Positions 48,297-48,322 of a stretch of 64,000 bases of DNA are shown here, one piece after another. The DNA is from Escherichia coli. GTDB taxonomy: Bacteria > Pseudomonadota > Gammaproteobacteria > Enterobacterales > Enterobacteriaceae. A model generated the notes under the pieces. It saw nothing but the letters and a program-made list of their open reading frames with translations. It made no database searches and was not told where the DNA came from. The number at the start of each line of letters is the position of its first letter. Positions within the stretch are counted from its first letter, which is position 1. Made by a program: the position numbers and the translations under genes. Location of the stretch: assembly GCF_003334255.1 (NCBI RefSeq), contig NZ_QOWU01000012.1; one strand, written 5' to 3'.

Positions 48297-48322
<26 letters not shown>

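Follow-up and report, generated by a model that had tools for sequence, protein, structure and literature searches.

The window (the whole 64-kb stretch of Escherichia coli DNA that was analyzed) carries two convergent genes, ycjG and mpaA, whose 3' ends share 26 bp (Table 1). The sequence, the ORF list, and the RefSeq annotation agree on this overlap, confirming the initial annotation, and, as had also been claimed there, the last codons of the two genes occupy the same DNA. The shared codons specify (F)TTGELHL* of YcjG on the plus strand and (P)KDAIRPS* of MpaA on the minus strand, with the TGA stop of mpaA appearing as “tca” on the plus strand. Codon positions 1, 2, and 3 of ycjG lie opposite positions 1, 3, and 2 of mpaA. 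The same 26-bp overlap is annotated by RefSeq in strain G1/2 (NZ_CP060083; locus L001, 4098..4123), which is 100% identical over 2 kb, and it is also annotated in two divergent E. coli strains. We found the 61-bp junction in 5413 of 5426 complete E. coli genomes (4472 identical and 941 with at least one mismatch). The pair thus consists of two real genes with 26 bp in common at their 3' ends, that is, a convergent overlapping CDS pair.

YcjG epimerizes L-Ala-D-Glu to L-Ala-L-Glu, which is then split by PepD (PMC2954226). The proposal that both genes act on the same murein peptide substrate was not borne out, as MpaA and YcjG catalyze consecutive steps of the pathway (PMC2954226). Both genes have been assigned to the PgrR regulon, with PgrR as their common repressor (PMC5934670).

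Table 1. Positions of genes, transcript ends, and other features in the window
Feature	Position	Strand	Description
pdeR/ymiD CDS overlap	3289-3307		19 bp, convergent; pdeR on + in the record; RefSeq
tyrR/tpx terminator palindrome	46694-46728	both	Perfect 16 bp, 3-nt loop; fills the 43-nt convergent spacer
tpx Term-seq 3' end	46723	-	Very strong; 1388306(-) (PMC7815308)
tpx	46732..47238	-	Same strand as mpaA, beyond ycjG
ycjG CDS	47357..48322	+	L-Ala-D/L-Glu epimerase, 321 aa; stop TAG 48320-48322; ORF list, RefSeq, 1jpd
Candidate Rho loading zone, mpaA-strand RNA	47987..48194	-	C rich, G poor; 100-300 nt past mpaA stop, antisense to ycjG; C/G 1.4-2.2
ycjG/mpaA shared stretch	48297..48322	both	26 bp; sequence, ORF list, RefSeq
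mpaA CDS	48297..49025	-	Murein tripeptide amidase, 242 aa; stop TGA 48299-48297; ORF list, RefSeq, 5hxd
C-rich, G-poor ycjG-strand RNA	48634..48815	+	Inside antisense mpaA; C/G 1.5-1.85 in 78-nt windows; coincides with the Rho region
Rho region of Adams et al.	48703	+	1390286(+), antisense to mpaA; Rho score 3.94, p 7.2e-5 (PMC7815308)
Term-seq 3' end inside mpaA	48976	-	~50 nt past the ATG (PMC7815308)
ymjC remnant	49102-49290		62-aa ORF; annotated as incomplete “NAD-dependent dehydratase”
mppA	51655-54045		Annotated as two pseudogene pieces
IS1A within mppA	~52906-53603		

Junction across species and origin of the 26-bp state

We scanned one genome per species and derived overlap lengths from the first in-frame stops, taking for the Enterobacteriaceae the best 80 of 215 loci. 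ycjG is convergent and directly after mpaA in all 80 of these loci, and overlap length varies among them: 45 species have 10 bp (Enterobacter, Lelliottia, Leclercia, Kluyvera, Kosakonia, Raoultella, Trabulsiella, and others), 25 have 26 bp (Escherichia, Citrobacter, and Salmonella arizonae and diarizonae), 3 have 4 bp, 1 has 33 bp, and 1, a Citrobacter, has 47 bp. The remaining 5 species of the best 80 have no overlap, owing to an 88-bp spacer in one (L053) and an insert of 280 to 330 bp in four (L055, L057, L058, and L060). The insert in L055 (3727-4038), the only one of the four that was read in detail, contains a small ORF whose C-terminal 39 aa (MIEWEDESVATQDELMKRMIDTVAAVVLVLIVVAGLYFA) are hydrophobic with a predicted membrane segment, as well as a canonical bidirectional hairpin (AAAAAACCCGCAT...ATGCGGGTTTTTTT). 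L060 is titled “Chryseobacterium sp. 18061” and yet has an enterobacterial mpaA-ycjG locus, with an MpaA that is 85% identical to that of E. coli and a sequence nearly identical to that of “Citrobacter sp. 18056” (L055); it looks as if the organism label is wrong or the assembly contaminated. Separately, an IS66-family element, ISEc8, truncates ycjG in E. coli O157:H7 PV15-279 (L095, 1-1243), where the ycjG 3' remnant is annotated as “enolase C-terminal domain-like protein” and the overlap with mpaA is intact.

Individual genera extend this range. The overlap is 10 bp in Klebsiella oxytoca, 19 bp in Cronobacter, 21 bp in Erwinia, and 4 bp (TTAA) in Yersinia, and a 5-bp gap separates the genes in Serratia liquefaciens. 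Pantoea also has 26 bp, made differently: YcjG is extended to 327 aa, into codons of the MpaA C-terminal LLRW segment. Overall, of 88 additional species in which both genes occur, 83 keep them abutted, with values from -5 to +47 bp across three Enterobacterales families. Abutment is therefore old and persistent, and 26 bp is one clade-specific state among many. The conservation check proposed with the initial annotation therefore has a divided outcome, as the abutment is conserved but the 26-bp length itself is not. Among the matches listed, no genera other than Escherichia, Citrobacter, and Salmonella have the 26-bp state of the Escherichia type.

Dickeya and Pectobacteriaceae bacterium CE70 (L086, 3730-3803; L092, 3733-3787) lack ycjG at this locus; tpx comes directly after mpaA, in the same orientation and 55 to 75 nt away, with no obvious hairpin in these mpaA-tpx spacers. 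Given its absence in Dickeya, we considered whether ycjG had been inserted into an ancestral mpaA-tpx pair, and rejected this; because ycjG sits in place in Yersinia and Serratia, its loss in Pectobacteriaceae is more parsimonious. Distant MpaA homologues (L087 to L089, 45 to 52% identity) were uninformative; they lie on short contigs or in unrelated contexts.

Alignment of the junctions points to the event that separates the two main states. In the 10-bp state, which most Enterobacteriaceae among the matches listed hold, the junction reads TCAnnnnTGA and both stops are TGA. In the ycjG orientation, the 10-bp group reads ...CAT CTC TGA GGC TGC CAG CG and the 26-bp group ...CAT CTT TAG GAT GCC AGC G, so that the 26-bp sequence has one base fewer at the ycjG stop (TAGG versus TGAGG). 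Many separate genera share the 10-bp state, whereas the 26-bp state is restricted to Escherichia, Citrobacter, and Salmonella; parsimony over the taxon sample, rather than a computed tree, therefore suggests a single deletion in the ancestor of these three genera. In the 26-bp group, the ycjG stop has stayed in place, as TAG instead of TGA, and the frameshifted mpaA lacks the TGA and reads five further codons (to KDAIRPS) opposite FTTGELHL, with the next stop 16 nt on. Later stop changes are visible within Citrobacter. In three species, one A>T change turns mpaA AGA into TGA and ycjG TAG into AAG; both stops move by 21 nt, the overlap is again 26 bp, and MpaA is truncated at residue 235. Another Citrobacter has lost only the ycjG stop, which yields the 47-bp overlap. 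The TGAGG/TAGG difference and the double stop shift in Citrobacter both identify stop-codon change as the origin of the overlap.

Passive drift of stop codons at an element-free convergent junction is the best explanation for these patterns and, in our judgment, probably the correct one. At a junction that lacks an intergenic element, both stops would be free to drift and the overlap would be a passive by-product; mpaA has no stop of its own before it enters the reverse complement of the conserved terminal ycjG codons. Two observations count against this explanation: the persistent abutment across three families, which could mean selection for a terminator-less junction, and a published operon listing that is taken up below.

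Stop-codon mutation is the accepted model for convergent overlaps, of which Lillo and Krakauer (2007) counted 58 in E. coli, with phase 123:132 the commonest among those of at least 5 nt (PMC2174442). The ycjG/mpaA pair resembles these in its shared opposite-strand 3' ends, its phase of 123:132, and its stop-codon origin. It differs in that a one-base indel in the stop context, rather than simple stop loss, keeps one stop and frameshifts the other gene, and nothing essential differs. Of the nine convergent junctions annotated within the 64-kb window, two have overlapping genes, mpaA/ycjG (26 bp) and pdeR/ymiD (19 bp). We conclude that the ycjG/mpaA overlap is real, ordinary, statistically not unusual, and already annotated. 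It holds little new biology, given that standard annotation already shows the shared bases, published genome-wide lists include the overlapping transcripts, and the origin is textbook. It is a clean teaching example, in which overlap length shifts by single-base events while YcjG is constrained and the MpaA tail reads the opposite strand.

Terminators and transcript ends around the junction

The initial annotation held that the overlap leaves no room for an intergenic terminator. There is indeed no intergenic space and no hairpin at the junction, but this is not a general rule, because terminators can sit inside the opposing coding sequence (PMC2174442), and plus-strand termination here is Rho dependent and lies inside mpaA. 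A consensus scan for intrinsic terminators over 46600-49500 returned 3 sites versus 3.3 expected, none at the junction, and no terminator-like site above chance from mpaA to tpx. RNA folds of 48260-48360 were not significant relative to shuffles (z = 0.43 on the plus strand and -0.24 on the minus strand), an inverted-repeat search at the junction found short arms only, with a 5-bp palindrome around the ycjG stop, and an Rfam scan of the junction matched no family. A minus-strand fold at 48180-48300 (z = -2.38; 3 of 200 shuffles) was set aside as one of four tests and located in conserved coding sequence.

Bidirectional hairpin terminators have been described for convergent E. coli pairs (Ju et al. 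2019; Wang et al., bioRxiv 10.1101/2022.10.23.513370). ycjG/mpaA is likewise such a pair, but unlike those terminators its boundary has no stable stem-loop, and no Term-seq 3' end is reported there. The curated Term-seq lists for three conditions contain no 3' end near the junction on either strand, which low expression could also explain (PMC7815308). The nearest canonical terminator on the minus strand past mpaA is the tyrR/tpx palindrome, a textbook bidirectional terminator, within which the very strong tpx 3' end falls; it lies only one gene from the ycjG/mpaA junction, with which it contrasts.

We related the published 3' ends and Rho regions of Adams et al. (2021) to the window with a coordinate offset of 1341583, at which two of their 3'-end sequences mapped exactly. 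Their supplementary file 2 lists a Rho region on the ycjG strand that corresponds to a position 381 nt past the ycjG stop. The coinciding RNA is C rich by our computation and bicyclomycin sensitive by the published data (PMC7815308), the two properties expected of a Rho-dependent terminator. Such termination is common for 3' UTR and antisense RNAs, as 51.5% of the Adams et al. Rho regions are antisense to genes (PMC7815308); the ycjG RNA likewise is untranslated past its stop, C rich, and bicyclomycin sensitive, and there is nothing unusual about it. On the minus strand, RNA antisense to ycjG is C rich almost throughout, and we mark part of it as a candidate Rho loading zone, at which the Adams et al. 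lists contain neither a Rho region nor a Term-seq 3' end (PMC7815308). A further Term-seq 3' end, recorded on the minus strand inside mpaA in one of three growth conditions, lies directly after a GC hairpin (GCGCCGAACGCGGCGC) and could reflect premature termination or a processed end (PMC7815308).

According to the published data, the ycjG-strand transcript extends ~380 nt into antisense mpaA and ends at the Rho-dependent region. The mpaA-strand transcript would in turn pass antisense through ycjG toward tpx and the tyrR/tpx hairpin. RNA-seq coverage of the pair overlaps on both strands in published data (PMC12288877). The idea that the convergent transcripts are complementary at their 3' ends is thus sound and already catalogued (PMC12288877, PMC7815308). 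The complementarity, however, extends over hundreds of nucleotides; since termination occurs deep within the opposing gene, the 26-bp CDS overlap does not determine it. Antisense pairing would have at most a weak effect on two low-expressed genes that are co-regulated by PgrR.

Possible antisense coupling and a proposed mpaA-tpx unit

A different account would have selection keep the terminator-less junction as an antisense module, that is, as a convergent excludon or noncontiguous operon. The ycjY-ymjC-mpaA unit would read antisense through ycjG into tpx, ycjG transcription would enter mpaA antisense, and polymerase collisions or RNase III cleavage of the duplex would set the ratio of two consecutive enzymes. 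Published listings are consistent with such coupling. In ExcludonFinder (PMC12288877), ycjG-mpaA is one of 165 convergent and tpx-ycjG one of 16 divergent excludons, and mpaA-ycjG-tpx is given as one of only three noncontiguous operons of E. coli, present in at least 50% of RNA-seq samples. This last entry hints at organized read-through and is the listing that counts against passive drift. The abutment conserved in most species with both genes, the co-directional mpaA and tpx where ycjG is absent, and the lack of an intrinsic terminator in the consensus scan until the tyrR/tpx hairpin also fit an antisense module.

Several features of the junction argue against it. Overlap length and sequence vary among species, and Serratia has a gap. 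One clade tolerates the 280- to 330-bp insert, which in L055 even brings a small ORF and a bidirectional hairpin. Synonymous divergence of ycjG in the overlap (pS of 0.46 versus 0.60 in the flank) shows no extra RNA-level constraint. The functional logic is also reversed. ycjG and mpaA resemble convergent excludons (the concept of Sesto et al.) in being opposite-strand neighbors with overlapping transcripts and in figuring in the published list (PMC12288877). Classical excludons, in contrast, pair opposing functions with mutually exclusive expression, whereas YcjG and MpaA are cooperating, consecutive steps of the same pathway, in the same regulon and under one repressor, PgrR (PMC5934670, PMC2954226). 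We therefore regard an antisense module as unlikely. Were it real, the locus would offer a natural, conserved example of genes that are coupled by antisense transcription yet cooperate instead of opposing each other.

A narrower version centers on tpx. The junction would have been terminator free since before the split of Enterobacteriaceae, Erwiniaceae, and Yersiniaceae because mpaA and tpx, which are still immediate neighbors in Pectobacteriaceae, would be an old co-transcription unit in which ycjG is embedded antisense; mpaA read-through would then tune ycjG and tpx, coupling murein-peptide catabolism to peroxide defense. As in the noncontiguous operon of Saenz-Lahoya et al. (2019; cited in PMC12288877), mpaA and tpx are on the same strand with ycjG antisense between them. 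The putative mpaA-tpx co-transcription differs in that tpx is strongly expressed by itself and has a separate 3' end. We consider a conserved operon of this kind quite unlikely, and passive stop-codon drift remains the preferred reading of the junction.

Selection in the overlap and neighboring genes

We computed Nei-Gojobori pN/pS for the 23 species with the standard 26-bp configuration. The last 7 codons of YcjG (pS 0.46, pN 0.084, pN/pS 0.18) are close to its preceding 30 codons (pS 0.60, pN 0.087, pN/pS 0.15). For MpaA, the last 7 codons have a pS of 0.03, a pN of 0.24, and a pN/pS of 7.75, versus 0.66, 0.037, and 0.06, respectively, for the preceding 30 codons. Columns that are third positions of ycjG and second positions of mpaA vary in 6 of 9 cases, and those that are second positions of ycjG and third positions of mpaA are nearly invariant, with two singleton changes; synonymous sites of the MpaA tail are frozen solely by coinciding with ycjG second positions. 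Within the overlap, only YcjG is under purifying selection and evolves as though no other gene were present, and the MpaA tail lacks protein-level constraint and evolves freely. The near-normal ycjG pS in the overlap also argues against an additional RNA-level element there.

We therefore doubt strongly that the terminal AIRPS residues of MpaA are functional and that the overlap is a dual-coding segment selected in both frames. In favor of such a role, the final Ser of MpaA is invariant in the 23 species, and nearly all E. coli genomes carry the tail. Against this, purifying selection was found in one frame (YcjG, 0.18) and not in the other (MpaA, 7.75), and the variation falls at second codon positions of the MpaA tail. 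Across species, MpaA varies in length between 233 and 247 aa, the three Citrobacter species cut the protein short at 235, and both the crystallized chain (PDB 5hxd, which stops at residue 237, short of the five terminal residues AIRPS) and Vibrio MpaA, which ends at the position equivalent to residue 237, do without the tail. Caution is warranted in that MpaA residues 238 to 242 carry no evidence of function.

The chance that a wrong mpaA stop or frame creates the overlap as an annotation artifact, named at the outset as what could overturn it, is negligible. Nothing was found in its favor, and solved structures fix both frames by homology (residues 1 to 321 of YcjG are identical to PDB 1jpd, and MpaA matches 5hxd over residues 1 to 237 with one substitution, A79 here and V in 5hxd); the stops are set by frame, both frames are kept in the 80 species loci (best 80 of 215), and the choice of mpaA start (ATG at 49025 or TTG at 49085) leaves the 3' end unchanged.

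Other genes in the window show separate peculiarities. pdeR and the small gene ymiD form the second overlapping convergent pair, and pdeR-ymiD-yciZ also belongs to the three noncontiguous operons that ExcludonFinder gives for E. coli (PMC12288877), placing two of the three in this 64-kb window. Next to mpaA, a 62-aa ORF with a Rossmann GxGxxG start (MKKVLILGAGGQIARH...) is a ymjC remnant; other E. coli strains have an intact SDR oxidoreductase at the ymjC position, and their match to the query is ~660 bp longer. Further on, an IS1A insertion interrupts mppA in this strain, the gene for the murein tripeptide binding protein that supplies the pathway of MpaA and YcjG, and the neighboring ynaI is also annotated as two pseudogene fragments.
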